NCBI GenBank assembly: GCA_947088415.1
Contig: CAMUGK010000002.1
Span: 1-32,772, forward strand
Reading direction: 5' to 3'
Source: an uncultured Bacillota bacterium
Lineage (GTDB): Bacteria; Bacillota; Clostridia; Christensenellales; UBA1242
Length of the DNA stretch: 32,772 nt
Below are positions 48 through 16,680 of the stretch, piece by piece (positions within the stretch are counted from its first letter, which is position 1; every line of letters starts with the position of its first letter). Made by a program: the position numbers and the translations under genes. Under the pieces are notes generated by a model. The model was not told the DNA's origin. It worked only from the letters and a program-made list of their open reading frames with translations, and did no database searches.

Positions 48-230
48 ATGGAACAGCAAGAAAAAATATGTATTTCTATCCAAGAGATGGCTCAGTTGCT
101 TGGAATTGGAATAACTTCTGCCTACAAACTTGCAAACGATAAACTATTTTATCCAGCAAAGCGTGTTTGTGGAAGAATCGTAATACACTACGATTTGCTT
201 GAAAAGTGGATAAAAGAACAAAACAACTAG
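48..230 (+). CDS. Small helix-turn-helix DNA-binding protein of the AlpA/excisionase type
   Basis: 60-aa ORF with GGAGG 8 nt upstream. ISIQEMAQLLGIGITSAYKLAND reads as an HTH, and the C-terminal part (RIVIHYDLLEKWI) is typical of excisionase/AlpA-like regulators. It sits directly upstream of the primase gene. Confidence 0.6.
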   Translation: MEQQEKICISIQEMAQLLGIGITSAYKLANDKLFYPAKRVCGRIVIHYDLLEKWIKEQNN

Positions 231-238
231 GAGCGATT

Positions 239-2242: not shown

Positions 2243-2257
2243 AATACTGTTATTCTC

Positions 2258-2298
2258 GTTATTGCTGTTATGGGGAGAATAAAAATAACAGCAATAAC
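2258..2298. repeat. Perfect 14-bp inverted repeat downstream of the primase gene
   Basis: GTTATTGCTGTTAT (2258-2271) and ATAACAGCAATAAC (2285-2298) flank a 13-nt loop. No T-run follows, so this is not a classical terminator. Confidence 0.6.
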
Positions 2299-2351
2299 AC
2301 CTATAACGGTAAAAAGATATATAAGAAAAAATTAAAAAACTAGGAGTAAAT

Positions 2352-2687
2352 ATGTTTGAACACTATGACTTTTATAAAGCCAGTCAATTTCTGGCAAAAA
2401 CAAATCAATGTAAATGGATAATACAAGGAGTTACTGGACTTTTGCAATATGACGAGATAGATATTCTTGACACAATTGAAAAGTTAAAGCCTTGTAATTA
2501 TTATATGATTGAAAAATTATATTGTAAGATAATGCAAGATATGGATTATGAAGTTCCGTTTACTTTGGAAGAACTATTACTTTGCATTAAGAATTATCCA
2601 AAAAGAAGATTCAAAGGGTTTAACAAAAAGGCATGTTGTTATGTAAAAAATTTATATGAAAGATTACTGTACCTCTACCCAATGTAG
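2352..2687 (+). CDS. Hypothetical protein (111 aa)
   Basis: ORF with AGGAG 8 nt upstream of the ATG. I recognise no motif. Confidence 0.5.
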   Translation: MFEHYDFYKASQFLAKTNQCKWIIQGVTGLLQYDEIDILDTIEKLKPCNYYMIEKLYCKIMQDMDYEVPFTLEELLLCIKNYPKRRFKGFNKKACCYVKNLYERLLYLYPM

Positions 2688-2758
2688 ACCCCAGGGGGAT
2701 CTAAATCTCTACGAATTCAGTCTTTAGAGCGGGTCGGCAGTCGTATACAAATTTTCGC

Positions 2759-2890
2759 ATAATCAAAAATCAAAATGATAATCAAAATATTGAAAATATT
2801 ACTAGTAGAACATGTTACTAGTATTTTTTATTACTAAAAGTTTTATTTGAAAAGTAAAAAACACGAAAATAATTCAAAAAATAATCAAAA
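2759..2890. repeat. Iteron-like direct repeats ATAATCAAAA
   Basis: Exact 10-mers at 2759-2768, 2778-2787 and 2881-2890, plus a variant ATAATTCAAAA near 2869. They lie in a non-coding stretch of about 480 bp. A TACTAGTA...TACTAGTA hairpin with a T-run at about 2810-2835 lies between them. Confidence 0.4.
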
Positions 2891-3080
2891 TAAAGCAATT
2901 TAAGGAATGTTTTATAATTTGCGACAGTTTGATGGATGAAATCCTTTTCGTGCGACTGTGAGCGAATTTAAGACAAATTAAAGCAAAATTATGAGAAGAT
3001 AAGAAAACAAGAATACAAAATTACAAGAAAACAAAGTTTCAAGGATACAAAGATACAAGAGAAATCTTTTATTTTATTTG

Positions 3081-3155
3081 GCTGTTCGCTGGACTTTAAT
3101 ATTCTTTTGCGGTATGTATTGTACTAGCAAAAGTACAAGTCCAGCTGTGAACAGC
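3081..3155. promoter_or_regulatory. Long nested inverted repeat immediately upstream of the excisionase-integrase pair
   Basis: GCTGTTCGCTGGACT (3081-3095) pairs with AGTCCAGC-tgt-GAACAGC (3138-3155). An inner hairpin TTGTACT/AGTACAA is present. The structure ends 5 nt before the RBS GGAGG (3161-3165). Confidence 0.4.
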
Positions 3156-3170
3156 ACATTGGAGGTATTA

Positions 3171-3389
3171 ATGCAAAGAATAAGGACTATCACTGAGACA
3201 TTACAAATGTTGAAGAAAGAAGATCCAGAAACTTGTTTAAGTGAGTTTCTCATAAGGAAACTTGCGAATAATTACAAAATCCGTTCCATAAAAACTGGCA
3301 ACAAAGTGCTGATTGATTACGATTCGCTATTGGCATTCTTGCAGAGTAAAAGTTACGAGTTGCCAATGGAACAAATTATCATAGGTTAA
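3171..3389 (+). CDS. Excisionase-like HTH protein
   Basis: The track ORF 3078..3389 starts at a TTG inside the inverted repeat. The ATG at 3171 has GGAGG 5 nt upstream. The product is colinear with, and similar to, the element-2 ORF at 13324..13518 (…KIRSIKTGNKVLIDYDSLLAFL versus …QITVLNIGSKFLIQLESLCDFL). Confidence 0.6.
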   Translation: MQRIRTITETLQMLKKEDPETCLSEFLIRKLANNYKIRSIKTGNKVLIDYDSLLAFLQSKSYELPMEQIIIG

Positions 3390-3400
3390 GGAGAAAAATT

Positions 3401-4792
3401 ATGCCATGTATTAAGAAAAATGTGCTAGACACGGGTGCGATTTCATATCGCATCCAAGTTAAAGCTAAGAATGAGCGAACTGGCAAGTTTGAGGCCAAAG
3501 TTATGACTTGCAGAAAGCCAGCAGAGTTAACAGAAAGGCAATATGAAAGAGAACTGCAAAGAATCGCCTTTGAGTTCGAGGATAAGTTTCGCAAGTCTAT
3601 GAATGGTTTGCTTGCGGTGGATAATGACATATTGTTTATAGATTATGCCAACAAATGGTTAGAAAAAGTTAAAAACACTAAGTCTCTCAACTATTATGTT
3701 AAAGGAAAAGACAGTATTAAAAAGTTCTATGCTTACTTTGGAAACATTAAACTTAATCAAATCACGCCAGTTATGGTGCAAGGTTTCTTGGATGAAATGA
3801 GTTATAAAAAGTGTGAAAAGAAAAGTGCCGTGATGATTAAAGACATAACACAATACCTTAAATCGCACTGCATTAAATTGGTTGATGCCACAAACAAAAC
3901 TGGTATATCAAGGTCAATATTCTTTTCGGCCACAAGCGGACATGGAATAATGGTTGAAAATGCTGAGCGAATATGTAAAGAGTTGGGATTAAAATATGAC
4001 GAATACTTTAAGACAGAAATAATCTCACATCCTTATGCAAAGGAAACAATACTAAAACTTAAACGAACACTTGCAACAATATTAGCAGAGGCAAAAAGAC
4101 AAAGGCTTGTTGAACACAACTTCGCAAGCAGAGATTATATTGCACCGATACAAGGCTACAAGAAAGAAATACAAATTCTAAATGATAAAGAAGCGAAAAT
4201 ACTGGCACAATACTTGGATACTGAACCAAACCCTCGCTGGAAGATCTCTCTGTTAACAATCTTGTTTATGGGGTTAAGGCGTGGCGAACTTGCTGGCCTT
4301 GAATGGCAAGATATTGACTATGAGAATAAGACAATGACAATTCAAAGATCGGTGCAAGACATCGTCGGCTTTGGACTTATAACCAAAGATCCAAAGACCG
4401 AGAACTCAAAACGCACAATATCAATGCCAGATAAACTAATAACTTACTTGAAAGAATATCAAGTATGGTGGGATAATCAAAAGCACTATCTTGGCGACCG
4501 CTGGAAAGATACTGACCGATTATTCTGCACAGAAGATGGAAAAACAATCTCGCCAGGATTATTTAGAGTATGGCTACAAAAGACATTAGTAAAAGCGGGC
4601 TTGCCAAAAGTGTCCCTTCACTCACTTCGCCACACTAATATAACCTTGCAATTAATCGCAGGTGTAGACATGAAAACCGTCTCTGCTCGTGCAGGCCACA
4701 GTAAAGCATCTACCACAAGCGACTTCTATAGCCACTTTATAAAGAATTCAGATATTCACGCGAGTGAAATATTGAATAAAATATTTGAATAA
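3401..4792 (+). CDS. int: Tyrosine recombinase / integrase
   Basis: Catalytic-domain motifs seen: GLRRGELAGLEWQDID, HSLRHTNIT, AGHSKASTTSDFYSH (R...HxxR...H...Y). AAGGAG RBS. Homologous along its length to the integrase at 13955..15376. Confidence 0.9.
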   Translation: MPCIKKNVLDTGAISYRIQVKAKNERTGKFEAKVMTCRKPAELTERQYERELQRIAFEFEDKFRKSMNGLLAVDNDILFIDYANKWLEKVKNTKSLNYYVKGKDSIKKFYAYFGNIKLNQITPVMVQGFLDEMSYKKCEKKSAVMIKDITQYLKSHCIKLVDATNKTGISRSIFFSATSGHGIMVENAERICKELGLKYDEYFKTEIISHPYAKETILKLKRTLATILAEAKRQRLVEHNFASRDYIAPIQGYKKEIQILNDKEAKILAQYLDTEPNPRWKISLLTILFMGLRRGELAGLEWQDIDYENKTMTIQRSVQDIVGFGLITKDPKTENSKRTISMPDKLITYLKEYQVWWDNQKHYLGDRWKDTDRLFCTEDGKTISPGLFRVWLQKTLVKAGLPKVSLHSLRHTNITLQLIAGVDMKTVSARAGHSKASTTSDFYSHFIKNSDIHASEILNKIFE

Positions 4793-4886: not shown

Positions 4887-7800
4887 ATGTTAAGCACATT
4901 AGATAAAATTCATATTATATTAAAGACGATAGCTACCACTGCAACGATTTCTAATATTAGTGGTTATGAAGATATGGCTAAGTCCTTAGAAAACTTTACA
5001 AAAAGTCTGTTTAAAGTTTTAGATAATAAGGATTTCGGTCAACCAACCATATTAAAATGCAATAACGGAAATGTTGAATTTGTTGCGAATGACGGTACGG
5101 AATATCAAGTTACTACAAACAATAATTTTAAAGCGAAGTGTGAAAAAACAATAATCACATTTTTAGAGAATAAACAAGCTGGTCATACATTGCAAATTGT
5201 TTACTATGTATTATTGTCAGGTAATGACAAAACAAAAAAGAAACAGTTACTCTCACAATATCCAAAGGATGTCTCAATATACGATGTAGAAGATATTTGC
5301 AGGAAAATTGCACAATGTGACGATGAAACTGTGAATAAAATTTTTAATATCTGTATGGAATTTTATCCCATAGATTTTTCTAATTATGCTCTTGACACAT
5401 TCACCAATTCTATTAAGTTATGCGATGATTATATTGACAGAAGCTTTAATGTTTTAAATAACAATTCATTTTTAAAGATCGAAAGCATAGACGATTTATT
5501 AAAACAATATCGAAATATCGTTATAATGGCTGATGCTTCAGCTGGTAAAACAGAGCTATTGATAAAAATCAATAACAGTTATTACGACAAGCAAAAATGC
5601 GTATACTATTATCAATTGAAGAATTACAATGGTAAAGAAATTATAAAATATCTTCCTAAACCCTTTTTGTTACATCCAACTCCTTTATTATTGTTGGATG
5701 GATTTGATGAAATCGAAAGTGTTCATGTGGATAATTTTATAAAGGAACTTAATACATTTACACAAATATACCCAGATTGTAAAGTCGTTATTACATCTAG
5801 AAAGAATTTTTGCACTCGAAATATGTTTGATAATTTTTCATATTGCGAATTAAACGATTTAACTGACACGGAAATAGATGCTTATTTTAAAGATAAATTT
5901 GATGAAAAACATACTGAAAAAATAAATTTGTGCAAAACTCTCAATATATATAATTTATTATATAATCCTTTCTACTTAACAAGAATAGTTAAGGTTCTTA
6001 GTCTAAAAGACAATTTATCAAATAGATCTGACATTATGAAAGCGACTTTCGAATTAGATTATAATAAATATAAATATAATAAAGAGATTTCTAGCGAGAC
6101 TTTGCTATGTCAATTAACACAATTTGCAATGTTTTTATTTCAAAAAGACAAGTCTAATTGCGATATTTCAGATTATAAGCAATTCGATAATGATAAAATG
6201 AGAGCTTTTTCTTGGCTGTTATATCAAGATGATAAAATCAGTTTTGTACACAATAATTTTAAAGAATTCCTAATAGCTCTAAGATTAAGCGAATTTCCAG
6301 TTTCTAAAATAATCAAAATAATAACACTCAAATTAGATAAGCCATATATTAAAACAAAGTATACCAATATATTAAGTTTTATGCTATCTTCTTATAAAAA
6401 TGATAAACTCTTTGATTATGTATTGAAATATGGCCAATATATTATACTAGATCTCGAAGAATCGTCTTTAACAGAGAAACAGAAAATTCAAATAATTGAA
6501 AAGATATATAAGGAATATGAGTTAAAAAAATCTTGGCCAAATGCTTATCTTTATAATGAGAGAAAGTTAGCAAAAATTTGTGATACTAAAAAAATTATTG
6601 AAATTTTAATATCAAAATTGAAACCCAAAAATCATAGAACTACAATAGTGTTTTCTATTGAGTTATTAAAAGAAGTCCCATCTTTATTTGGTTTCACGAA
6701 TAAGTTAAAAGAATTAGTTATACAATGGCTTAATGATGATTGCCTGGATGAAGTAGTGTTAAGTTCTTTAATTTATTCCCTAAATAAGCTAAATGCTTCT
6801 ATTGAAGAAGTTTCTAGTATATATTTAAAATACAGAAACCATAAGTATTCTAGAATTCGTGCATCTGTGAATTATTTACTAAAGGAATATAAATTAGCAA
6901 CAAAATTTATTCCTGAAGTTATAGAAGGATTCAGTAAAGGCCAGTTAAAAGTTCTTGATGTTAACCATAAAGAAGAAGATGTTATTGATGCTGGAGAAAG
7001 CTACTATTTACAACAGGCAATAAGTGAAATCAGAGATGAAAACGCTTTAGAACAACTCTTGGACTTTATAATTGAAAATGAGAGGAAGTATGAAACAAGA
7101 TCTTTTACGGAATATGTTTTTCAGGCTCTTGAAAATAAAAGAAAAATCGGACTAAAACTACAAGAAAAGCTGTATACTTTATTAAGTTTAACTTGTCTGC
7201 ATTATACTGACAACTTGTTAAATTTAACACTAAACTTAATTTATAAATTTAAGCTTAATAATGAATTTATGAGTAAAATATTTTCAGACACAGAAATAAA
7301 AGAATATCAAAAAAATCTACTAATTGCGCGTTTATATACAGACGAATCAATTTTTAAATGTCTAGATTATTTTAAATCACAAACAAAACAACAAATAGAA
7401 AATTTTATATATTATCTAAAGGAATATAACAAAAATTATGCAGATGTAATTAGTTTGTTGAAAGCTGAAGGAATCTCTTGTTCTTTACCTAAAAATGATT
7501 ATGAATTGCAAAGGCAAAAAGCAATCCAAACACATTTTAATAATTTATTTTTTAAAGAAAAAGTTATAGCAATTGTAAGGAAAATACTGAAAGATCTTAA
7601 CGGCGATGAGATTTCTAGAAAAAAAGTCAGAGAGCATTATCTCTACAGCGATTATAAATTGCCTTTCTATATTTATTCGTTATTTGATATTGATAGTAAT
7701 AATTTTAATGAAAAGAAAATTCTTAAACAAGTTACAGACAATTGGCAAATTTCACAGATTTATGATATGTTACATCACAACAAGCAATTAGAATTAAAGT

Positions 7801-8777
7801 CTAAGCAAATTGATTTTATAAATAAATGGGTTGTTAAGCAATTAGAAGTAATAGATTTCAAAAATGCCATAACTTATAATGGCACGTCTTGGTCTACATC
7901 TTATAATGCGATGTATACAGAATATTTTATAAGAAAATGTGATTTGCTTGTTGATAATAATATTTATGAAGATATGTTATGCTTTACTTGGGGAGAAAAT
8001 TCTGATTCTGATATTTCCAATTTGGAGTTTATTGAACAAAAACTCGGCAGTGAAAACTTTAAATCAAAACTTTCAGAATTTAGTAAAAAGGACTTCTTAG
8101 ATGGCTATGTTTTAAGTAACAGATTGAGATATTGCATGAAAAAGGATTATGATATTTTGTTTGATTGTGTAATCAAAAAAATATCGAACTTAAATAAGGA
8201 TGAAACTGATTATCATTCTAGTATATACTTCGAGTATTTAAATAAATTTGGCAGACTAGCTTCTGCTTACGATTTTTATGACAATTTGCCAATTAATTTA
8301 AAGTTAGAATTAATACATATGAGTTTAAATCAAAATTTGGATAATAAATTCATTTTGGATCATACAGAGAAAGATATATCCTTAAATGATGAAAATTCTA
8401 TTAAAATAGCAAAAGCATTATTACCACATAGAAGTTCAGTTGCCTTAAAATATTATTATAAAACAATACATAAAGACGGCTTTGAAATATCATATCCATA
8501 TCCGACACTTAAAGCATATCAAGACAAAAAGTATTTTAAAACCTTATTTAAAATTTTAGCGTTGACATATAAATATAAGGATGAAGATAATCATACCAGA
8601 AATGACCTAATGTTTTGTTTTGAAAAAATTTGCATTAATTCGAATCTTAAGACAGTAAAGTATATAATAAAAAAATTAAACAGATTTACTAAAATCTCTA
8701 AGTATGAAAATGTAAATTATTTACATTATTATTTAGATGGTATAAAGCTGCAGATTATAACACAAAAAGACGCTTAA
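4887..8777 (+). CDS. NACHT-type STAND NTPase (1296 aa) with an uncharacterised N-terminal domain and a long alpha-helical C-terminal region
   Basis: Walker A ADASAGKT (GKT at nt 5544-5552). Walker B LLLLDGFDEI, the NACHT-typical hhhhDGxDE form. VVITSRKN follows it. About 200 aa lie upstream of the P-loop and about 800 aa of Leu/Ile/Lys-rich helical sequence lie downstream. The gene has its own promoter and terminator. Confidence 0.85.
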   Translation: MLSTLDKIHIILKTIATTATISNISGYEDMAKSLENFTKSLFKVLDNKDFGQPTILKCNNGNVEFVANDGTEYQVTTNNNFKAKCEKTIITFLENKQAGHTLQIVYYVLLSGNDKTKKKQLLSQYPKDVSIYDVEDICRKIAQCDDETVNKIFNICMEFYPIDFSNYALDTFTNSIKLCDDYIDRSFNVLNNNSFLKIESIDDLLKQYRNIVIMADASAGKTELLIKINNSYYDKQKCVYYYQLKNYNGKEIIKYLPKPFLLHPTPLLLLDGFDEIESVHVDNFIKELNTFTQIYPDCKVVITSRKNFCTRNMFDNFSYCELNDLTDTEIDAYFKDKFDEKHTEKINLCKTLNIYNLLYNPFYLTRIVKVLSLKDNLSNRSDIMKATFELDYNKYKYNKEISSETLLCQLTQFAMFLFQKDKSNCDISDYKQFDNDKMRAFSWLLYQDDKISFVHNNFKEFLIALRLSEFPVSKIIKIITLKLDKPYIKTKYTNILSFMLSSYKNDKLFDYVLKYGQYIILDLEESSLTEKQKIQIIEKIYKEYELKKSWPNAYLYNERKLAKICDTKKIIEILISKLKPKNHRTTIVFSIELLKEVPSLFGFTNKLKELVIQWLNDDCLDEVVLSSLIYSLNKLNASIEEVSSIYLKYRNHKYSRIRASVNYLLKEYKLATKFIPEVIEGFSKGQLKVLDVNHKEEDVIDAGESYYLQQAISEIRDENALEQLLDFIIENERKYETRSFTEYVFQALENKRKIGLKLQEKLYTLLSLTCLHYTDNLLNLTLNLIYKFKLNNEFMSKIFSDTEIKEYQKNLLIARLYTDESIFKCLDYFKSQTKQQIENFIYYLKEYNKNYADVISLLKAEGISCSLPKNDYELQRQKAIQTHFNNLFFKEKVIAIVRKILKDLNGDEISRKKVREHYLYSDYKLPFYIYSLFDIDSNNFNEKKILKQVTDNWQISQIYDMLHHNKQLELKSKQIDFINKWVVKQLEVIDFKNAITYNGTSWSTSYNAMYTEYFIRKCDLLVDNNIYEDMLCFTWGENSDSDISNLEFIEQKLGSENFKSKLSEFSKKDFLDGYVLSNRLRYCMKKDYDILFDCVIKKISNLNKDETDYHSSIYFEYLNKFGRLASAYDFYDNLPINLKLELIHMSLNQNLDNKFILDHTEKDISLNDENSIKIAKALLPHRSSVALKYYYKTIHKDGFEISYPYPTLKAYQDKKYFKTLFKILALTYKYKDEDNHTRNDLMFCFEKICINSNLKTVKYIIKKLNRFTKISKYENVNYLHYYLDGIKLQIITQKDA

Positions 8778-8790
8778 CCAGCGTCTTTTT
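8764..8790 (+). terminator. Rho-independent terminator of the NACHT gene
   Basis: AAAAGACGCT (8765-8774) pairs with AGCGTCTTTT (8780-8789). The stop codon lies in the loop and a T-run follows. Confidence 0.7.
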
Positions 8791-8798
8791 GTGTAAAT

Positions 8799-8844
8799 TG
8801 GTGAGAGTAAGAAGATTTGAACTTCCGACCTGTCGCTTAGGAGG
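8799..8844 (-). pseudogene. Orphan 3' half of a tRNA-Arg(CCU): anticodon loop to CCA. Acts as an att junction.
   Basis: The reverse complement reads CCTCCTAAG-CGAC-AGGTC-GGAAG-TTCAAAT-CTTCT-TACTCTC-A-CCA. No matching 5' half is adjacent: the upstream sequence GGTGGCTAATTGCC cannot form the anticodon or D stems. Confidence 0.75.
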
Positions 8845-9090
8845 GGCAATTAGCCACCGAAGTCCTATTGAATAACTTTTGAAATACACATATCTATTTG
8901 TATTATCAATTAACTTTTCATAGTATAATACAAAATTTGTGCTTTTGTCAAAAACTTCAAATAACTTTTGTTCCATGAGTAGCATTTTTAGTATGGTATG
9001 AAAGTTATAAATGACTTACAAACCGTCTTTACTCTTTAACTTAAATAAAAATTAAAACATCAGGGTTGATGTTGAGTTAAGGAGATTAAA

Positions 9091-9963
9091 ATGGAAAAGA
9101 ATAATTTAATAAAAGAAAACGACCTTGTTAAAGTAAGAGTTGTTAGAGATGAAGTAATATTACACAATATTAGCATGTGTAATCGTAAACCTGTTTCAAG
9201 AAGAATTGGAAATGGTAAAAGAGTTAATATTCAAACAGGCGAAATCACAGAAGAAAAGAAAACTGCAAAACGAGGCGAAAGCCTTTATAGTTTGCTTGAA
9301 AGCAATATTAAACTACAAGATTTAATTAAAGAAAATACTGTAAACTTAAAACATATACTTTTGCTAACATTCACTTACAGAGAAAAAACATTAGATATAA
9401 AGAAAATAAACGAAGATTTTAAGTCTTTTATGAAACGATTAAGGCGAAGAATAACTGAATTTGGAACAATAGAATATATAAACACACTTGAATTAGATAA
9501 TGGTGGCTATCATATACACGCAATAATTTTCTTTAATGAGTCTAAAAAGATTGTTTATATACCTGACACAATAATAGCAGAGATATGGGGTCATGGGTTT
9601 ATAAAGTTTGGGAAAAAACCTAAAACTAAAAAAGATGTATACTATTATGTGACACCTCACTTATCAAATGAAGTGACAAATAAAAATAGTCATATGCACT
9701 ATAAAGCACTAATGCAAATGGAACTACCAACTGGACAAAACCTTTATAGATATTCAAAAGGTCTTAAAAAGCCTATAATTCACACGGATACTTATGAAAA
9801 TGTGAAGAAATATCTTAAAGAAAATAGTTATGTGTTTGAAAGAGAAAATGTATATCTTAATCCTATGCAGTCTCACAGGGGCAACAACCTATACTATTGC
9901 AAAGAGTATTATAAAAAAGAAGAAACAAAGTCTTACGGATTAGGTAAACGAACACCTATCTAA
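9091..9963 (+). CDS. rep: HUH-superfamily rolling-circle Rep / relaxase-like protein
   Basis: Motif I-like ILLLTFTY. HUH motif GGYHIHAIIFF (H-I-H at nt 9511-9519). Tyr-rich motif DVYYYVTPHL. AAGGAG RBS. Confidence 0.7.
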   Translation: MEKNNLIKENDLVKVRVVRDEVILHNISMCNRKPVSRRIGNGKRVNIQTGEITEEKKTAKRGESLYSLLESNIKLQDLIKENTVNLKHILLLTFTYREKTLDIKKINEDFKSFMKRLRRRITEFGTIEYINTLELDNGGYHIHAIIFFNESKKIVYIPDTIIAEIWGHGFIKFGKKPKTKKDVYYYVTPHLSNEVTNKNSHMHYKALMQMELPTGQNLYRYSKGLKKPIIHTDTYENVKKYLKENSYVFERENVYLNPMQSHRGNNLYYCKEYYKKEETKSYGLGKRTPI

Positions 9964-9986
9964 ACTGCCTTTTAAGAAGCATTGAT

Positions 9987-10013
9987 ATTTAATATAATAA
10001 ATTTATATTAAAT
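9987..10013. repeat. AT-rich 11-bp hairpin just downstream of rep, plus a nearby direct repeat CCTATTTGCA x2
   Basis: ATTTAATATAA (9987-9997) pairs with TTATATTAAAT (10003-10013). CCTATTTGCA occurs at 10036-10045 and 10070-10079. Confidence 0.4.
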
Positions 10014-10149
10014 AATTTATATCAGCCATTTTAGACCTATTTGCAGTGGCGAGAAAGTTTGTGACAGTCCCTATTTGCAAAATAATAGCCCCAAAGTTAT
10101 AATTTTTATATAAACTAAGAGCAAAGTGTGATATAATGCAAAGGGAGGC

Positions 10150-10974
10150 ATGAAAATGAAACAAATAAAAACTTCCATCTATTGGTTTATTTTAATTTGT
10201 AGTGTTTTAATGGCGGTTTTAATAACAATAGCAACTACTATGGGTTCAAATAATTTAATTATAGGACTTATTTCAGGTGTTTTTTCTAGTGCTATGGTTG
10301 TTTTGATTGACCTTTTTATAAAATATTTTATAAGTAAAAAAGAAACATTTCAAACTATTACAAATTCAGTTTATAATTTATTTTCACAAGTAATCTTATT
10401 TATTTCAAGTATAGAAGATTTTGGGTATAATGATTTTGAATTATGGTATGAAAATATCCAAAACAAACGAAAAGAATTACTAAAAAGTTCAAGGGACTTA
10501 ATAGATAACATTTGCGATGTTTACTGCTTTTTCAAAAAAGGATATAAACTTGTTGGAGAACTTTATCAACTTTTTTATACATTAGACTTCTATGAGTTAT
10601 TAGATTTCTCAAATAGCGAAATTACTTTGGAAATTCAAAATACTATAATAGAAATTGAAGACATGGACTTACTAAAATATAGAGATAAAATAAGGCTTAA
10701 AAACAAATTTGAAAAATTAAAAGATAATTATAAAAATCAATTAAAAGAAGGAATTAAAAAATTAAACGAATACCTTCATCCAGTAGAAAATATTTATAAA
10801 GATATGTGTAAAAAATATTTCAATGAAAGTATTTATAACAATGCTAAAAAGTTTTTGAATAATTTAGATTTTGAATTAAATGATAAAAAATTAAATTATG
10901 CCTTTAGAGAGATTTTTATAAAGCAAGATATTCAATTAAAATATTTGAGTAAAGATAAAAAAGACTTGCAGTAA
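10150..10974 (+). CDS. Membrane protein with two N-terminal TM helices and a helical cytoplasmic domain of about 200 aa
   Basis: TM segments IYWFILICSVLMAVLITIATTM and LIIGLISGVFSSAMVVLIDLFI. The ATG at 10156 has better spacing to GGAGG (10144-10148) than the ATG at 10150. A terminator hairpin is shared with the convergent XRE gene. Confidence 0.6.
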   Translation: MKMKQIKTSIYWFILICSVLMAVLITIATTMGSNNLIIGLISGVFSSAMVVLIDLFIKYFISKKETFQTITNSVYNLFSQVILFISSIEDFGYNDFELWYENIQNKRKELLKSSRDLIDNICDVYCFFKKGYKLVGELYQLFYTLDFYELLDFSNSEITLEIQNTIIEIEDMDLLKYRDKIRLKNKFEKLKDNYKNQLKEGIKKLNEYLHPVENIYKDMCKKYFNESIYNNAKKFLNNLDFELNDKKLNYAFREIFIKQDIQLKYLSKDKKDLQ

Positions 10975-11001
10975 TTTGCAGGTCTTTTGTTTTATTTGTT
11001 T

Positions 11002-11301
11002 TTAAGCAATGTAATAATAGCACTTTTTTTTATCAGGGCTGGCGGTTTTAAGTAAGTCTATAATCTCTTTGTCTTTGCGATATGCACTTATCTCATAATA
11101 AAAAAATTCAGAAACAGATGAATCACAAGCGTCTATAATTTCAAGCAGTGCTGAAACTGAAGGCTCAAAACTATCATTTTTAGACTCTAGACGGGAGATA
11201 TAGGCGGGATTTTTACCTATTTTCAAACTTAAATCACGAGCAGATAAACCTTTGTCTGACCTTAATCTACTTATACGAAAAATAACCTCTTTTTTATCCA
11301 T
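11002..11301 (-). CDS. XRE-family HTH transcriptional regulator
   Basis: LRSDKGLSARDLSLKIGKNPAYISRLESKN is a classic Cro/CI-type HTH. The gene is divergent from the operon at 11466-12944. Confidence 0.85.
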   Translation of the reverse strand: MDKKEVIFRISRLRSDKGLSARDLSLKIGKNPAYISRLESKNDSFEPSVSALLEIIDACDSSVSEFFYYEISAYRKDKEIIDLLKTASPDKKKCYYYIA

Positions 11302-11396
11302 AAATCCACCTCACAAATATACTAAAATTATAAATGATAAGCGGCTTTATGGCACTTTGCAACACTTGTAAAAATTACATAGTATGAAACTATTTT

Positions 11397-11445
11397 GCAC
11401 TTATAAGTGCATTTGTTTGCTTTTACATTCATTTTGTGCTATTAT
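11397..11445 (+). promoter_or_regulatory. Perfect 14-bp palindrome (candidate operator) abutting the operon promoter
   Basis: GCACTTATAAGTGC at 11397-11410. -35 TTGCTT at 11417-11422, a 17-nt spacer, and an extended -10 TGcTATTAT ending at 11445. Confidence 0.45.
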
Positions 11446-11465
11446 ACTTACATGAGAGGTGCAAA

Positions 11466-12302
11466 ATGAAAATTATTTTAAGTAAAAAGGGGTTAGACAG
11501 TAGCAACAGTGTTAAGCCTATAACTATTGATAATAAGCAAATGATATTTTTGCCTATTCCAAGTAATCAAGATTATGATAATGCAAGATATAGCGAAGTG
11601 TTTGAAAATAAAATATCATTGCTTTTCTATTGTATGGAAATGGGTATTGATTTTGGTTATATAGACAACAAAAAATTGCCAATGAATGGAACTACAAACT
11701 GCCATTTAGACCCACAACTTATAAATTATTTTGGTTATGATAATTTCAAAGGTAGTTTTGGGCAAGTGAAAGCCGCCCAGAAGCATTTAGAAAATAAACA
11801 AGTGCAAGCAGGCGATTTGTTTTTGTTTTATGGTTGGTATACCGATAATAAAACACATAAAGAAAAGCATACTCTTTTTGGCTATTTGCAGGTTGGAGAG
11901 ATTATAAAAGTTAATGAGTTGACTGCAAGCCAAAAGCAAAAAATAGTTGATAAATATCCTTGGCTACACCATCAACCTCATTGGTATAGCCAAGAAACAA
12001 ATAATACAATTTACATAGCAAGGGAAACCTGTTCATTTAATAAAAATATCAAAGGTTTTGGAATGTTTAAATATGATAAAGAATTAGACTTGACAGCAAA
12101 AGATATTGGCACAAAAACCTGCTGGGAAATTTCAGCATTGAAAAATTGTAAAGTATCTTTCAAAGACCATAATGGAAACGACAGTTTTAATGATTTGGGA
12201 CAATTTAGAGTTGCTGACCGCTGTCAAGAGATAGTTATTGAAGAGTGTCCGCAGGCTGAAAAGTGGGCTATAAACTTAATTAAAAAATATAAAAGGAGAT
12301 AA
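11466..12302 (+). CDS. Conserved-looking protein of unknown function (279 aa), possibly Nmad3-like
   Basis: The track ORF starts at a GTG (11436) inside the -10 box. The ATG at 11466 has GAGAGGTG upstream. The N-terminus MKIILSKKGLDSS..., CHLDPQL, FGQVKAAQKHL and GDLFLFYGWY resemble my recollection of Nmad3 (nucleotide-modification-associated domain 3) proteins. This is from memory and unverified. Confidence 0.6.
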   Translation: MKIILSKKGLDSSNSVKPITIDNKQMIFLPIPSNQDYDNARYSEVFENKISLLFYCMEMGIDFGYIDNKKLPMNGTTNCHLDPQLINYFGYDNFKGSFGQVKAAQKHLENKQVQAGDLFLFYGWYTDNKTHKEKHTLFGYLQVGEIIKVNELTASQKQKIVDKYPWLHHQPHWYSQETNNTIYIARETCSFNKNIKGFGMFKYDKELDLTAKDIGTKTCWEISALKNCKVSFKDHNGNDSFNDLGQFRVADRCQEIVIEECPQAEKWAINLIKKYKRR

Positions 12303-12304
12303 AA

Positions 12305-12625
12305 ATGAAAAACATAAGTTTAACAGTAGAATTCAAAAATCCAGAAAAAGAATTGCAAGAACAATTACAAAGAAATGGTGCAAGAAATATAAGCATAAGA
12401 AGAAATTTTGACGGCTGTCTTGAAGTGTCTTACAAAATTGTTTGTGCTGACCCACAAAAAGAAATTGAAAAAATGCTGTCATCATCTGGCGGACAAAGTG
12501 TTAGAAGTTCGTCAAGTTATAATGGTGCAAGATTTGATATGAAAATTGACGATCGTCTTGATGAAAGAGAGTTCAAAAAGCAAATTATAGACGCTCTCCG
12601 CAGAGCAGGTTTTAGAGCAAACTAA
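12305..12625 (+). CDS. Hypothetical protein (106 aa), closely coupled to the upstream gene
   Basis: The ATG lies 2 nt after the upstream TAA, with AGGAG inside the upstream 3' end. No motif recognised. Confidence 0.6.
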   Translation: MKNISLTVEFKNPEKELQEQLQRNGARNISIRRNFDGCLEVSYKIVCADPQKEIEKMLSSSGGQSVRSSSSYNGARFDMKIDDRLDEREFKKQIIDALRRAGFRAN

Positions 12626-12639
12626 AAACAACTAAAAAT

Positions 12640-12674
12640 AACCGTCTCCGTTATGATTAGTAGGAGGCGGTTTT
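12640..12674 (+). terminator. Terminator-like hairpin whose 3' arm contains the RBS of the next ORF
   Basis: AACCGTCTCC (12640-12649) pairs with GGAGGCGGTT (12663-12672), with one G-T pair. TTTT follows, then the ATG at 12675. Confidence 0.5.
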
Positions 12675-12944
12675 ATGTTTTTAGAAATTTACGATAAGTT
12701 TGACAAAAAGTTAGGAGATGTTTTTGTTAGTGAAGATGGCCATATGTCTTTATGTTTTGACAATAAAAATAATTTGCTAGGCAGAATTGTTGGAGATGAG
12801 AAAGTTTTATTTGCCTTTGATGAAGATGATAGGTATTTAGGAAGATATGATAGTCTTTATACTTACGATAGGCATGACAACTTGTTAAAAAGGGGTAATT
12901 TAATATATAACATGTTTTATCTCACCATTAAACACATTAGATAG
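12675..12944 (+). CDS. Small repeat-containing protein (89 aa), possibly 4-fold beta-flower-like
   Basis: Internal repeats: DNKNNLLGRIVGDE, DEDDRYLGRYDS and DRHDNLLKRGN. The family name is recalled from memory only. Confidence 0.5.
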   Translation: MFLEIYDKFDKKLGDVFVSEDGHMSLCFDNKNNLLGRIVGDEKVLFAFDEDDRYLGRYDSLYTYDRHDNLLKRGNLIYNMFYLTIKHIR

Positions 12945-13323
12945 CCCTGCAAGTGCCTGCAAATGGCGTGAGAACAGGCAAAAGAGTTTTTATCGGTAAA
13001 TCGACCATGAAAATATAAAAAGCCATACAAAAGGCTAAATAATAGGAAAAGTCCGCAAACAGAAAGCGGTCTTTTTTTATGCTATTTTTTATCTTAAAAC
13101 CATGACATGGTAAAACATCGCTTCAATAACCCCTGTCGTGTGAAGTCATATGTAAACAACGAGTTGGGATAGAGCAAAAAATCACTATAGTCCTGTGTGC
13201 ACATTAAAAGCACACGAAAATTTACGGGATTTTTCGGGAAATACGGCAAAATGGTTGCCTTCTCTGCCTGCATCGGCTTTAATGAGTTCTAACTCGAAAA
13301 ACTCCCATTACAAAAGGAGGTAA

Positions 13324-13518
13324 ATGGTTATGTATAGGACGATAGAGCAAGCCTATGCTTACTTAAAAGAACTTGACCCTAACACAGCACTAACAAAATA
13401 TTATTTGAGAGTTTTGTGTCAAACAAACCAAATCACAGTGCTTAATATAGGCTCAAAGTTTTTAATCCAACTTGAAAGTTTATGCGACTTTCTAAAAATC
13501 AAATTATGTGAAAACTAA
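13324..13518 (+). CDS. Excisionase-like HTH protein
   Basis: Homologous to the ORF at 3171..3389 and located upstream of the integrase. The ATG at 13330 has better spacing to GGAGG (13316-13320) than the ATG at 13324. Confidence 0.6.
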   Translation: MVMYRTIEQAYAYLKELDPNTALTKYYLRVLCQTNQITVLNIGSKFLIQLESLCDFLKIKLCEN

Positions 13519-13536
13519 AAATATAAGGAGTAAAAA

Positions 13537-13953
13537 ATGGAAATCAAAAATTTAGGAAAGTATGTAAGTGTGTTAGACAATGGCTTAATGCAAATGATTG
13601 GAGAAAAACCTATTGAATATACACTACATGCTCAATTTAGAAGCACAGTCACAGGTGCGATAACAAGATTTGAAAAAGTTGTAAAAAATACAAAAGAATT
13701 TGAAGGAAAAGAACTTAAAGAGTTTTTATATTCAAACCTTCAAGAATTTATTAAAGAACGAGAGTTTAGGTTTATATATAACTTTATACCTTATGAGTCA
13801 GCGGAATATGAATTCCCTAACAAAAAAGGCAAGGTAAAGACATGGAAAGCAAAAGTGTTTTATAGTGAAAGCGAAAAAGAAAGTCATAAAATGTTTTTGA
13901 AATTAGCACAAGCAAGAGAAGAACAAAAGTTAAGAAAAAAAGGAGTAATGTAA
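13537..13953 (+). CDS. Hypothetical protein (138 aa)
   Basis: AAGGAG RBS. The stop codon lies 1 nt before the integrase ATG. No motif recognised. Confidence 0.6.
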   Translation: MEIKNLGKYVSVLDNGLMQMIGEKPIEYTLHAQFRSTVTGAITRFEKVVKNTKEFEGKELKEFLYSNLQEFIKEREFRFIYNFIPYESAEYEFPNKKGKVKTWKAKVFYSESEKESHKMFLKLAQAREEQKLRKKGVM

Positions 13954-13954
13954 A

Positions 13955-15376
13955 ATGGCAACATATGAGAAAAGAACAGCAAAGAAGGACGGTCATATCA
14001 CATATGGCATACAAATCAAAGTTAAGGACTATTTGGGTAGAGATAAATTTGTAAACACTACTTGGAAAAACCCTAACAACCTTACAGGCGAAAGAGCAAA
14101 AAAGGCTGCGATTGCTTTTGGTGAAACATGGGAAGCAGAATATAAAAACGGTCATACCCATAAGTTAAGCAATGCAAGTTTTAATCAAGTAGCAAATGAG
14201 TGGCTACGAAATGTTAAACACAGAGTATCATTAAACTATATTTTACGATCGGAAGATTGTATTAAAAGAATGACCGAATACTTTGGAGATGTAAGATTTG
14301 TAGATTTAAGGGCTCATGAAATCCAACAATTTATCACATACCTAAACGAATATACTTACAAAACTATAACCGCAAAAGTAAAAGAATATAAACTTGATGA
14401 GTTTAAGGAAAGTATAAAAGCAAATGGCGGTGCGAGAAAGGCAGAGAGAGATGGAATAATATCACGCCCTGTGTTTTACTATGCTACACATGGAGAACCT
14501 ATTGCATATAGCAGTGCCGAGAAAATTTGTAATTTATTAAAAATAAGTATAAAAGAATTTTTTGAAAAGATTGTAGTTGAAAAAGGTTATGCAAAAGAGA
14601 CAATACTAAAATATCAACACACATTAAGTGCAATTTTCAATTATGCAATCAAAAATGAGTTAGTGACTTCAAATTATGCTTCAAGTGTTTACACAAAAGA
14701 TAGCATAGGCGGAAGAAAAACCGAAGAAGCCAAAATATTAACTAACCAAGAATATGACAAATTATTAGAAACTTTGAAACTTGCGGACAACAAGTTAGAC
14801 AACAAAGGACAACCACTTAATCTTATTTGGGAAACTATACCTTTGTATGTTATGACCCAATTAGGACTTAGAACTGCCGAAGTGTGCGGTCTTAAATGGG
14901 AAGATATAGATTTAGATGAAAGAGTTTTGAGTGTATGCAGAGATAGAGTTTACACTCCAAAATATGGTGTTTATGATAGAGATACAAAAACTGCTAAATC
15001 AACAAGAAAATTATTTATAAGTGATTTGTTAGCCGAAAAATTACAATTATTCAAAGATAAATATGAAGAACTTAAAAAAGCCGATAAAAAGTTTGATAAA
15101 AGAGGCTATATCTTTTGTAATGTTGATGGCACACCAAAGTTCCCACAATATCTTAACTATTTACTACAAAAATATCTTTTAGAAGCAAATGTCACAGTTG
15201 TATCAAATCATAAGATACGACACACATGGATAACAAGACTTATCACAAATGGTGCACCTGTAAACGGAGTTGCACAAATGGCAGGTCATGCCGACAAAAA
15301 TACAACATTAAAGATATACACTCACTTTTCAAAAGATGTTAAGGCATCACAAGAATTGTTGACAAAATATTTGTAA
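13955..15376 (+). CDS. int: Tyrosine recombinase / integrase
   Basis: GLRTAEVCGLKWEDID, HKIRHTWIT, AGHADKNTTLKIYTH. Same architecture as the integrase at 3401..4792, including the shared segment ISRxxF..AT.G......AEKIC. Confidence 0.9.
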   Translation: MATYEKRTAKKDGHITYGIQIKVKDYLGRDKFVNTTWKNPNNLTGERAKKAAIAFGETWEAEYKNGHTHKLSNASFNQVANEWLRNVKHRVSLNYILRSEDCIKRMTEYFGDVRFVDLRAHEIQQFITYLNEYTYKTITAKVKEYKLDEFKESIKANGGARKAERDGIISRPVFYYATHGEPIAYSSAEKICNLLKISIKEFFEKIVVEKGYAKETILKYQHTLSAIFNYAIKNELVTSNYASSVYTKDSIGGRKTEEAKILTNQEYDKLLETLKLADNKLDNKGQPLNLIWETIPLYVMTQLGLRTAEVCGLKWEDIDLDERVLSVCRDRVYTPKYGVYDRDTKTAKSTRKLFISDLLAEKLQLFKDKYEELKKADKKFDKRGYIFCNVDGTPKFPQYLNYLLQKYLLEANVTVVSNHKIRHTWITRLITNGAPVNGVAQMAGHADKNTTLKIYTHFSKDVKASQELLTKYL

Positions 15377-15410
15377 TGTTATTGAGACACACAAAAACTT
15401 AATAAAATAA

Positions 15411-15443
15411 AATGCTAGGTGCGAATACTCGTATCCTAGCATT
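15411..15443. terminator. Bidirectional terminator hairpin between the integrase and the HEPN gene
   Basis: AATGCTAGG (15411-15419) pairs with CCTAGCATT (15435-15443). Confidence 0.6.
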
Positions 15444-15465
15444 GATAATGTTTCGACATGAATTA

Positions 15466-16116
15466 TTATGGTCTTTTTATTGATTGAAGAATAGAAACTA
15501 ATTTTTCAGTATCTAAACTTTTTCTAGTAAGATAGCCAAGTTGATAATCTTCAAACAATATATCTATTGAATTGCCAAAAGTATTATGACAAGAACTAAT
15601 TTTGTCATGCCCTAGCAATTCAAACATATTGTTCATTAAGTCGAAGATATTTTCAAGTAAAGCAATTATTTTTGCAGAGTCTAATTTTAAGAGAAATATG
15701 TCTGAGTTTGCATTTCGCAGTTTTTTATCAAAATGTGCTAAATAATTATCTCTAAATGTTCTTAATTTTGACAACTCATCTTTATTGTCGCTTATCAGAG
15801 TGTCAATATTTTTAGCAAGTTCTTTTAGTTTTAGGTCGTTTTGTTTATCTAGAATTTTATTTGAATTTATAAAGTTTGAAACACTTTGAATAGATAAGGA
15901 ATCAGGGTCGCCATCAAATAATTTAGCAGCAGTTAACATAGATTGTTCTTTTAATGAATGAGAAATATGTCCTAAGTCATTTTTTAGAATGCCATAAGAC
16001 GACTTATCTATTTCATACCAATCGTTTATTCTTTCATTCAAGTAATAGTTGTTTTGGACTTCACTAATTTTAGAATGTAAAAATTTAAGTGTTTTAGTCA
16101 AAATATCAGAATTCAT
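15466..16116 (-). CDS. HEPN-domain protein, AbiU2-like abortive-infection candidate
   Basis: The internal ATG at 16116 has AGGTGA upstream. The track start at 16149 lacks an RBS. An Rx4-6H motif, RDNYLAH, lies at nt 15733-15753 within LRTFRDNYLAHFD. The protein is all-alpha and Leu/Asn/Lys-rich. Confidence 0.6.
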   Translation of the reverse strand: MNSDILTKTLKFLHSKISEVQNNYYLNERINDWYEIDKSSYGILKNDLGHISHSLKEQSMLTAAKLFDGDPDSLSIQSVSNFINSNKILDKQNDLKLKELAKNIDTLISDNKDELSKLRTFRDNYLAHFDKKLRNANSDIFLLKLDSAKIIALLENIFDLMNNMFELLGHDKISSCHNTFGNSIDILFEDYQLGYLTRKSLDTEKLVSILQSIKRP

Positions 16117-16162
16117 TATCACCTCACAAAATAAAAAGTATCTAGCCAAATAGATACTTAAA

Positions 16163-16237
16163 TGGTGTTCCCAAGCCGACTCGAACGGCTGACTAACCCT
16201 TAGGAGGGGTTTGTAATATCCACTTTACTATGGGAAC
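16163..16237 (-). tRNA. tRNA-Arg (anticodon CCU), intact, 75 nt with encoded CCA
   Basis: The reverse complement folds as GTTCCCA TA GTAA AGTGGATA TTAC A AACCC CTCCTAA GGGTT AGTC AGCCG TTCGAGT CGGCT TGGGAAC A CCA. All four stems are Watson-Crick paired. Confidence 0.9.
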
Positions 16238-16379
16238 ATAAAACTTATAAAAAACTATAAAAAATTGGAGTGAAGATGGCTTTTGTATGGGATTTACGAA
16301 AATCACAAAAACATAATACCACAGAAAACCTAGTAAATACAAGGGTTTTAGGGGTTTTCAGGGGTGGCTATAACAAAGC

Positions 16380-16419
16380 CTTAGGAGGCGACCGCTCTAT
16401 CCAGCTGAGCTACGAAAAC
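16380..16419 (-). pseudogene. Orphan 5' half of a different tRNA-Arg(CCU): positions 1 to about 39. Acts as an att junction.
   Basis: The reverse complement reads GTTTTCG TA GCTC AGCTGGATA GAGC G GTCGC CTCCTAA G. It then continues into non-tRNA sequence (GCTTTGTTATAGCCACC). Confidence 0.75.
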
Positions 16420-16680
16420 AGGATGATATAAGTATAGCATATATTGATAGTTAAAGCAATTATATTTTATAATGTCAAAAGTTTTGATTATATGAAAAGC
16501 GTTAAAAGTATCAATTTTGGACAGAATTCGATGTTGCACGATATTATTCGACAACTTTCGATAAAGTTTTTGTGTAAAATGTAAAAAATTCTTGCAAACG
16601 ATAGTAAGAAAATTTTTATCATATTCAATTTTATGGTATAACATATTTAAGATTTATTTACTTTTGTTTAGGGAGTCAAT

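Follow-up and report, generated by a model that had tools for sequence, protein, structure and literature searches.

We analyzed 32,772 nucleotides (nt) of contig CAMUGK010000002.1, which is from an uncultured Bacillota bacterium (Clostridia; Christensenellales; UBA1242). We will call this whole stretch the window. Between positions 11002 and 12944, a regulator gene of the XRE family diverges from a compact rightward unit of three genes, the first of which encodes a protein of the Nmad3 family. The unit lies on an integrated element of ~7.5 kb, element 2, which has a rolling-circle Rep and a tyrosine integrase and is located at tRNA-Arg(CCT). The original prediction, which was made from the sequence alone, was that the three genes form an undescribed system under the control of the XRE. 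We found that the XRE gene, the operator and promoter, a hairpin, and gene 3 belong to the backbone of the element, that positions 11462-12627 are a slot for exchangeable cargo, and that gene 2 lies in a sub-slot of its own. The features of this region, with lengths of proteins in amino acids (aa), are as follows.

11002-11301, minus strand: XRE-family (HTH_3) regulator gene, 99 aa; element backbone; Pfam HTH_3, E = 2e-7
11327-11362, minus strand: candidate XRE promoter(s), GTGCCA-17-TATAAT (10/12) or TTGCAA-17-TATCAT (9/12); consensus match only
11367-11379, no strand: second palindrome TGTAAAAATTACA, part of the conserved block ACTTGTAAAAATTACATnnnATGAAA; flanked by the XRE promoter and the main operator
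11396-11411, no strand: perfect palindrome TGCACTTATAAGTGCA, 16 bp, presumed XRE operator
11417-11445, plus strand: cargo promoter, with a weak -35 TTGCTT (11417-11422), a 17-nt spacer, and an extended -10 TGcTATTAT (11437-11445)
11462-12627, plus strand: exchangeable cargo slot; left boundary, backbone promoter and ribosome-binding site (RBS); right boundary, backbone hairpin
11466-12302, plus strand: gene 1, Nmad3-family protein, 278 aa; putative PUA-like core; Pfam PF18754, E = 3.3e-43
12305-12625, plus strand: gene 2, 106 aa, helix-hairpin repeats; own sub-slot at 12309-12627
12640-12672, plus strand: hairpin AACCGTCTCC...GGAGGCGGTT and T-run, -21 kcal/mol, z = -4.8; backbone
12675-12944, plus strand: gene 3, 89 aa, four D..(N/D)..LG-type repeat units; element backbone
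13042-13080, no strand: intrinsic-terminator-like hairpin, -15 kcal/mol, z = -4.0; A/T-rich flanks on both sides

To delimit the slot, we rely on loci (given L-numbers) that were compared with the window by gene order, blastn, and profile comparison. Nmad3, gene 2, and gene 3 are found together only in seven near-identical copies of one element. These copies are on seven metagenome contigs (L001-L007) with different left arms, and they show 99.8-99.96% DNA identity over 8789-16388. The diverged elements L100, L102, L103, and L106, whose Nmad3 proteins are 63-76% identical, retain Rep, the XRE, Nmad3, gene 3, genes for proteins of 62 aa and 137 aa, and the integrase, and in these elements gene 2 is replaced. 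One replacement is a 359-aa protein with a zinc ribbon, a membrane segment, and InlB repeats; another is a tail-anchored protein of 200-214 aa; and a third is a tail-anchored protein (207 aa) together with a DnaB_C-like ATPase. Via relatives of gene 3, we located L108, L109-L112, and L113, which have the same backbone and keep the XRE and gene 3 but lack Nmad3. The first gene in the slot encodes a 330-aa lipoprotein in L109-L112 and a 335-aa SHOCT membrane protein in L113, and the slot of L108 contains two membrane proteins, of 175 and 148 aa.

Alignments with blastn locate the points of exchange. Homology with L109 ends at 11461, which is five bases before the ATG of Nmad3. Homology with L103 covers 11000-12308, is broken over gene 2, and restarts at 12628, and homology with L102 and L113 restarts at 12625. 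Because gene 2 or Nmad3 is replaced while the XRE and gene 3 stay, we view Nmad3 and gene 2 as cargo and the XRE and gene 3 as backbone. We are confident in this mosaic and hotspot anatomy. It had also been stated that none of the genes is needed for integration or replication, and this cannot be said of the XRE and gene 3, given that they are backbone.

One family of membrane proteins appears repeatedly in the cargo slot (L011:8845-9246, L014:8939-9115, L108:602-1129, and L113:4942-5949), and its N-terminal motif is K(K)R(T/S)G(L/F)xIAGGxLEIxxGxxW. Members are encoded after Nmad3, or as the first gene where Nmad3 is absent, and the member in L113 is fused to a SHOCT domain. Separately, we asked if the first-slot proteins of 175, 330, and 335 aa (from L108, L109, and L113) might be divergent forms of Nmad3, and we rejected this (hhalign probability <1%).

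Could Nmad3, gene 2, and gene 3 nevertheless be a single toxin, defence, or modification module under its own XRE, as originally predicted? The genes are tightly spaced, with 2 nt between genes 1 and 2, and a single promoter and a single terminator serve them all. All seven metagenome contigs have the complete trio; Nmad3 and gene 3 are found together in loci whose Nmad3 is as little as 39% identical; and the Nmad3 and gene 2 families are linked in three arrangements (the window, L012, and L130). But the seven contigs are one element at >99.8% identity, and in diverged elements the trio is not conserved: gene 2 is swapped in four of them, and in L108, L109-L112, and L113 it is Nmad3 that is replaced, with the XRE and gene 3 kept. 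Furthermore, most homologs of gene 2 have no Nmad3 nearby, and types of XRE assort independently of the cargo. These comparative data largely refute a dedicated three-gene system, which we consider highly improbable.

The assortment of the XRE can be seen from its two types. The window, L107, L108, and L109 have type A, and L012 and L113 have type B and share 79% identity. As both types accompany Nmad3 in some loci and different cargo in others, we rejected the idea that the XRE is a dedicated regulator of Nmad3.

The XRE protein has a Cro/C1-type helix-turn-helix (HTH) domain (Pfam HTH_3, 31.2 bits against a cut-off of 23), which agrees with its original description, and throughout the related elements its homologs are divergent from the cargo and upstream of it. 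In PADLOC it has weak matches to HTH_VI, capH, and control proteins of restriction-modification systems, which reflect generic HTH similarity. The copies of the XRE gene in L001-L007 encode 102 aa. Compared with them, a 1-nt change in a homopolymer has shifted the frame of the final ~10 codons in the window: the C-terminus (11026-11033 region) reads KKKCYYYIA in the window and KKSAIITLLKNK in L001. This difference could be a genuine variant or an assembly error.

The predicted palindrome upstream of the -35 box is present, and it is longer than reported: the 14-bp GCACTTATAAGTGC at 11397-11410 is the core of the 16-bp TGCACTTATAAGTGCA, which ends 5-6 nt before TTGCTT. The palindrome occurs once in the window, and even with 2 mismatches allowed, 0.08 matches are expected by chance. 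It is identical in L103, it has 1-2 changes in L102, L010, L014, and L107, and L109, whose cargo is unrelated, has the variant TGCACAAATATGTGCA. Two related half-sites, ATTTTGCAC (11392-11400) and GTGCAAAAT (11459-11467), bracket the promoter, and the second of these overlaps the RBS and the start codon of gene 1. The palindrome and half-sites are co-conserved with the type of XRE.

We read the cargo promoter by eye; a simple promoter scan did not list it, as its -35 box matches the consensus at just 3/6 positions. The promoter block ATGCTATTAT is conserved across the element family, and the spacer that contains the operator and the promoter is conserved whatever the cargo, including cargo other than Nmad3. 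The second palindrome, within its block, recurs with minor differences between the XRE and the cargo in L008, L010, L014, L100, L102, L103, L106, L107, L108, and L109, and it might serve as another site for a regulator or belong to a promoter. Scanning 10900-13600 with Rfam gave nothing near threshold. Overall, the prediction of an XRE-type regulator with a conserved operator and promoter driving a compact rightward unit on an integrative element holds up, and the surroundings are, as expected, typical of accessory or defence cargo.

On the right side of the slot, the hairpin at 12640-12672 is kept in 7/9 related elements, independently of what they carry as cargo. Its 3' arm includes AGGAGG (12662-12667), the Shine-Dalgarno sequence of gene 3. 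In an alignment of the hairpins, 81% of cells are paired, versus 73% in shuffles, and 3 pairs have compensatory changes. This hairpin looks like an attenuator or a terminator that marks the right end of the cargo slot. The hairpin at 13042-13080, which was missed by the scan owing to its 9-nt loop, probably ends the transcription unit.

Gene 3, which lies between the two hairpins, is at the same backbone position with Nmad3 cargo and without it. Its family is tiny, with 12 representatives among 1.84 billion proteins. Gene 3 had been described as an 89-aa protein with an internally repeated motif and a likeness to 4-fold beta-flower proteins. The length and the repeats are as described. As for the beta-flower, gene 3 has no match in Pfam or NCBIfam at E <= 1, while 8/16 of its relatives have sub-threshold matches to Bflower (PF21784; best E = 6e-4; at best 20.6 bits versus a cut-off of 25), and half of the family has sub-threshold matches to 4-fold and 5-fold beta-flower families. 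On these profile scores, a likeness to beta-flower proteins is plausible, and membership is not demonstrated.

Turning to the cargo, gene 1 had been recognized as similar to Nmad3 from a few motifs, and this was correct, although the protein has 278 rather than 279 residues. It matches Pfam's Nmad3 model (PF18754) with 148.5 bits, well above the gathering cut-off of 27, over profile positions 1-246 of 247. The ATG at 11466 is preceded by GAGAGGTG, and MK[IV]ILSKKG is the start of all homologs. Gene 1 has all of the motifs of the family (SKKGxDS, CHLDP, FGQ, DLFLFxGW, PH, and QE). Across 109 homologs of Nmad3, the invariant positions are S6, K8, G9, D11, H80, G99, D117, H172, and Q254, and the conserved polar residues of gene 1 are S6, K8, D11, H80, D82, Q100, D117, H172, Q254, and E255. 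The invariance of polar residues suggests a site for catalysis or ligand binding. The products of genes 1-3 have no match to a metabolic enzyme.

An AlphaFold2 model of Nmad3 has high confidence (predicted local distance difference test, or pLDDT, of 96.1; predicted template modeling score, or pTM, of 0.94). Using Foldseek, the model had no significant match in PDB (best E = 0.06) or in BFVD (best E = 0.009). The weak top matches were nearly all to PUA-like folds, with TM-scores of 0.1-0.35: ASCH/DUF984, EVE/THYN1, PH1033, YTH, the N-terminal domain of ATP sulfurylase, and DUF3850. Residues 95-159 also have a weak match to Pfam's EVE model (14.1 bits versus a cut-off of 23). A profile of the 109 Nmad3 sequences, compared to all PDB sequences, gave one match only, which was spurious. 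Full-text literature searching for Nmad3 and Nmad2 surfaced no relevant paper.

The Nmad3 family is broad: a genome scan found at least 536 matching stretches in the genomes of bacterial and archaeal species. In contrast to these, tblastn gave 0 matches in 50,697 phage genomes, and there were 10 loci among 2.9 million viral contigs. Another 6 matches were in large plasmids or chromids, and all of these were annotated as hypothetical. Nmad3 is a cellular rather than a phage gene. The divergent XRE is limited to the clade of Nmad3 proteins that are at least 39% identical to gene 1. This clade is also found outside of the element. For instance, L107 has the XRE, the same promoter architecture, a fusion of Nmad3 to a DnaA-like domain (L107:4848-6508), and an RNase T-like exonuclease, all between ribosomal-protein genes and truA, with neither Rep nor integrase nearby. 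Four homologs of Nmad3 (P0019, P0020, P0022, and P0017; 45-48% identical) partially match the DnaA ATPase domain in a C-terminal region.

Gene 2, as described originally, encodes 106 aa, begins 2 nt past the stop codon of gene 1, and has no recognizable motif. We found no family for it in Pfam, NCBIfam, PHROGs, or PADLOC. We identified 28 clusters of homologs, nearly all of 106 aa, with repeated helix-hairpin units. A structure model (pLDDT of 82) had no significant match in PDB by Foldseek. We disregarded fold matches to GyrA, with a root-mean-square deviation of ~18 Å.

Homologs of gene 2 are mostly found in chromosomal defence islands of gut Firmicutes. The order in these islands is a divergent XRE-like gene, then an IetA-like protein with AAA+ and Peptidase_M41 domains, gene 2 (often 2 nt past the stop codon of the AAA-protease), a WYL regulator, and a variable gene, X. 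X is the type IV restriction enzyme GmrSD in L127, L128, and also L090-L094; a UzuA-like GIY-YIG protein in L095 and L129; and a PD-(D/E)XK nuclease in L133. In L130, X is an Nmad3 protein that is 40% identical to gene 1, so that this locus, the window, and L012 are the three arrangements in which the two families meet. Nmad3 in L130 thus takes a place that other islands give to nucleases directed at foreign DNA, which is often modified. The AAA-protease and gene 2 look like a candidate module in their own right. In most of these loci the IetA-like AAA-protease is about 421-425 aa and no membrane anchor was called. Islands that recur in gut metagenomes are L095-L099, L127-L130, L133, L090-L094, and L124.

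These islands bear on whether Nmad3 might instead be a nucleotide- or DNA-modifying enzyme, or a repair-type enzyme, that marks or protects nucleic acid belonging to the element or to its host instead of attacking invaders, for instance as an anti-restriction function during transfer. The name of the family stands for "nucleotide modification associated." Across diverse genomes, its commonest neighbor is Nmad2 (13/78 immediate same-strand neighbors). The other neighbors are of many kinds, among them methylases, SIR2, a Schlafen-like helicase, radical SAM enzymes, and HAD enzymes. The conserved set of His, Asp, Lys, and Glu residues is typical of an enzyme, and ASCH-type folds include hydrolases that act on modified nucleosides (YqfB-type amidohydrolases). 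However, neither Nmad2 nor another modification enzyme is encoded beside gene 1 in the window or in the close, XRE-linked clade; a profile of Nmad2, which we built from the neighbors of Nmad3 elsewhere, has no match among the proteins of the window or of the slots. Nmad3 is nearly absent from phages, which are the home of hypermodification pathways. In L130, Nmad3 occupies the position of a restriction-type nuclease. And constitutive self-marking is harder to reconcile with repression by the XRE than an activity that is costly or conditional. We consider a protective modification enzyme to be rather unlikely.

Another alternative is suggested by what follows Nmad3. It is always followed closely (within 1-17 nt) by a variable second gene of small or medium size, and it is under repressor control, as would be expected if Nmad3 were the toxin of a toxin-antitoxin (TA) or addiction module, with gene 2 as the neutralizing partner and the XRE in control. 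The XRE is weakly similar to MqsA- and HigA-type antitoxins, and gene 2 is also coupled, at 2 nt, to the AAA-protease elsewhere. But the second genes are unrelated between loci (106, 139, 133, 200-214, or 359 aa, or RNase T-like), and several of them encode membrane proteins or an exonuclease, which are effector-like rather than antitoxin-like. Across the broad Nmad3 family there is no constant small partner, and in L014 and L015, Nmad3 is followed by just a 58-aa truncated gene for a membrane protein. A test for type II TA systems found no conserved cognate pair of toxin and partner, with the downstream partner of Nmad3 varying by locus. A TA module is, in our view, quite unlikely.

We give an even chance to the explanation that we consider best overall, namely that the unit carries repressor-gated accessory cargo on a mosaic unit, that this cargo is probably anti-phage, and that Nmad3 acts on nucleic acid. 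That the cargo functions in defence would, on its own, be a close call, at most even and perhaps slightly below. Other slots of the element family contain AbiU2/HEPN, an AriA/OLD-like ATPase, and a Ser/Thr kinase. We also count in favor of defence the islands around homologs of gene 2, the variable second genes behind Nmad3, the fusions of some Nmad3 homologs to a DnaA-like ATPase, the PUA-like trend of the weak fold matches, and the scarcity of Nmad3 in phages. The literature lends indirect support: Nmad2, the sister domain of Nmad3, is part of an experimentally validated defence system (PMC13092281), and a beta-flower protein by itself gives resistance to phages (bioRxiv 10.1101/2024.07.02.601686).

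In the mechanism that we propose for this repressor-gated cargo, the XRE would bind to the palindrome and to the half-sites that bracket the -10 box and the start codon, and the cargo would be silent or expressed at a low level. Nmad3 and gene 2 would be made once this repression ends, and the trigger might be a phage infection or the induction of the element. Some transcripts would read through the hairpin, or the hairpin would melt, and gene 3 would then be expressed. Nmad3 would be the active component: a soluble protein with a PUA-like (ASCH/EVE-type) barrel and a polar site formed by K8, D11, H80-x-D82, H172, and Q254-E255. It may bind or process a nucleic acid or a nucleotide, most likely one with a modified base. 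PUA-like domains recognize modified bases, and fusions of these domains to type IV restriction nucleases are common. Nmad3 would then provide defence or exclusion in the manner of the modification-dependent nucleases that occupy the equivalent position in the islands. Gene 2 may be an accessory or adaptor protein that travels between defence modules and whose usual partner is the IetA-like AAA-protease. Gene 3 may serve the element itself, or it may be a constant small protein for defence or exclusion.

Several points weigh against this explanation. The functions of all three proteins are computational predictions, and none of the three has a counterpart in PADLOC, PHROGs, or NCBIfam (for the PADLOC-DB v2 models, there is no match at E <= 1). 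A variable slot need not hold defence genes. Many of the alternative cargos are membrane proteins, which could have a role in exclusion, adhesion, or something else. Nmad3 and gene 2 could be two independent cargos that happen to be stacked. Nmad3 is found in the X position behind a WYL regulator at a single locus (L130). The assignment of Nmad3 to the PUA-like fold is a weak but consistent trend among the matches of a predicted structure and not demonstrated homology. Finally, a palindrome 5' of the -35 box could equally serve in activation or in autoregulation of the XRE.

A bolder joint reading is possible, but we hold it tentatively and think it somewhat unlikely: Nmad3 would be an unrecognized anti-phage effector, interchangeable with nucleases, on an undescribed family of repressor-gated elements. 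A PUA-like pocket and a His/Asp/Lys site might recognize or process modified nucleic acid. Nmad3 might be interchangeable with GmrSD, UzuA, and PD-(D/E)XK nucleases behind WYL or XRE regulators. The elements might form an undescribed family of small Rep/integrase elements of gut Firmicutes, with this slot and at least three further cargo hotspots. And the defence cargo might be on only when the repressor of the element is lifted.

The rest of element 2, which is one of the tandem integrated elements that adjoin tRNA-Arg(CCT) at 16163-16237, includes these features.

9091-9963: rolling-circle Rep, microvirus-like; REP_ORF2-G2P, E = 5e-14
10150-10974: two-pass membrane/coiled-coil protein, 274 aa; between Rep and the XRE
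13955-15376: tyrosine integrase; Phage_integrase, E = 3e-27
15466-16149, minus strand: AbiU2/HEPN gene; Pfam E = 2e-14; between int and tRNA-Arg

There are also genes for proteins of 64 aa and 138 aa; the 64-aa protein is xis-like by eye and has no profile match. The pair of Rep and integrase is present in all related loci, and the element resembles an integrative mobilizable element (IME). The AbiU2 stretch (15463-16162) is an insertion, as blastn alignments to L102 and L113 jump from 15462 to 16163, and AbiU2/HEPN is cargo in a second slot of the element. The interval between Rep and the XRE is a further variable slot, with a 602-aa AriA/OLD-like AAA_15/AAA_21 ATPase in L109-L112 (L109:2537-4345) and other unrelated proteins of 247-294 aa elsewhere.

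The position of Nmad3 and gene 2 in this element raises the question of whether they are early genes of its life cycle that are expressed after derepression, with a role in helper interference or in the control of excision or replication. They are the first genes behind a promoter that is apparently controlled by the master repressor; all other backbone genes (the xis-like 64-aa gene, the 138-aa gene, int, and, in the circular form, Rep) are downstream on the same strand; and some Nmad3 proteins are fused or adjacent to DnaA-like or DnaB-like ATPases. But there are sister elements with the same backbone that lack Nmad3, the XRE and Nmad3 are found in L107 without Rep or integrase, and two strong hairpins or terminators separate the unit from xis and int. 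A life-cycle role is very improbable, and we continue to prefer repressor-gated accessory cargo.

A 1296-aa open reading frame (4887-8777, plus strand), which has no match in Pfam or PADLOC, fills the space from the element 1 integrase to the conserved block of element 2. At this position, L002 and L004 have a Ser/Thr kinase gene on the opposite strand. Element 1 (206-4792) is in tandem with element 2 and encodes a primase-helicase (CHC2 zinc finger, Toprim, and AAA_25/DnaB_C) and a tyrosine integrase (3401-4792). A copy of its integrase region that is 89% identical adjoins element 2 in L002.

Searches with the tRNA 3' end and its neighboring sequence gave no direct repeats that could be attachment (att) sites, and a general search for direct repeats gave only AT-rich pairs at the level expected by chance. 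The sequence CTTAGGAGG, from the anticodon loop of tRNA-Arg(CCT), is found at 8836, 16199, and 16380, and with one mismatch at 4800. These sites coincide with the ends of homology blocks, and the count of this 9-mer is not above chance. There are also partial tRNA halves at 8799-8850 (3' half) and 16378-16420 (5' half), whose anticodon stems match each other and whose acceptor stems do not. The recurrences of CTTAGGAGG are probable candidates for the att cores of a tandem array.

What was already known is that the Nmad3 family exists, as an uncharacterized family, and that mobile elements have cargo hotspots. Three things seem to be new: a bounded, repressor-gated slot on an apparently undescribed family of Rep/integrase elements (it is not described in the literature that we searched); a recurrent link, seen in gene neighborhoods, between Nmad3, the gene 2 family, and islands with a regulator and a nuclease; and a putative positional equivalence of Nmad3 with type IV-like nucleases. 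Nmad3, with its hundreds of occurrences, becomes a testable candidate, as its shared positions and putative PUA-like core predict nucleic-acid-directed defence. The mapped exchange points of the element family (at the promoter, the start codon, and the hairpin, and from int to the tRNA) form a catalogue for mining small genes of defence or exclusion from gut Clostridia and Bacilli. A second candidate module (IetA-like AAA-protease, gene 2, WYL, and variable nuclease) is flagged as well. Annotation should also be done with care: what looks like a neat operon under a repressor on a mobile element may be a backbone expression site with swapped inserts and not a single system.

How does this cargo compare to known systems? 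Gene 1 matches PF18754 from end to end and has the invariant residues of the family, whose function is not demonstrated, so its identity is one of family membership only. Its clade differs from the rest of the Nmad3 family in being paired with a divergent XRE on an integrative element and, here, in the absence of Nmad2. The PUA-like superfamily (ASCH, EVE/THYN1, YTH, and DUF3850) provides the best, although weak, fold hits. However, Nmad3 is about twice the size of these domains, with extra N- and C-terminal elements and polar residues of its own, and membership is not established. The five-gene NTTI system, which was validated in work with DefensePredictor, contains Nmad2 together with thymidylate synthase, kinase-type enzymes, and a 5-hydroxymethyldeoxyuridine (5-hmdU) kinase (PMC13092281). 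It is similar in that Nmad2 is the commonest neighbor of Nmad3 in the broad family. But NTTI has Nmad2 and not Nmad3, and none of its enzymes are present here. For gene 3, the comparison is to Cernunnos, a single beta-flower protein that confers phage resistance (bioRxiv 10.1101/2024.07.02.601686), and to Bflower (PF21784). Gene 3 has four short repeats of the beta-hairpin type, as judged from its sequence, but it reaches no threshold and behaves as a backbone gene rather than as a cassette.

As for the element, streptococcal IMEs have relaxases related to rolling-circle replication proteins, including the PHA00330 superfamily, along with tyrosine integrases and tRNA-type sites (PMC5357655). 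Element 2 similarly has a REP_ORF2-G2P Rep and a Phage_integrase. It differs in that no coupling protein (TcpA/FtsK-like) was seen, and the likening of its Rep to the PHA00330 group is by analogy. P4-type elements encode a primase, whereas this element encodes a microvirus-like rolling-circle Rep. The defence hotspots of P4 and P2 satellites, prophages, integrative and conjugative elements, IMEs, and integron cassettes likewise have a conserved backbone around swapped stretches. The slot described here differs from these because it immediately follows a backbone promoter under repressor control and is closed off by a conserved hairpin covering the RBS of the next gene. Finally, like the regulator-gated modules (WYL/BrxR, CapH, and C-proteins), the unit has a small divergent HTH regulator that presumably acts at a palindromic operator. 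Unlike the regulators of those modules, this XRE is a backbone gene, and we predict that it controls whatever cargo fills the slot.

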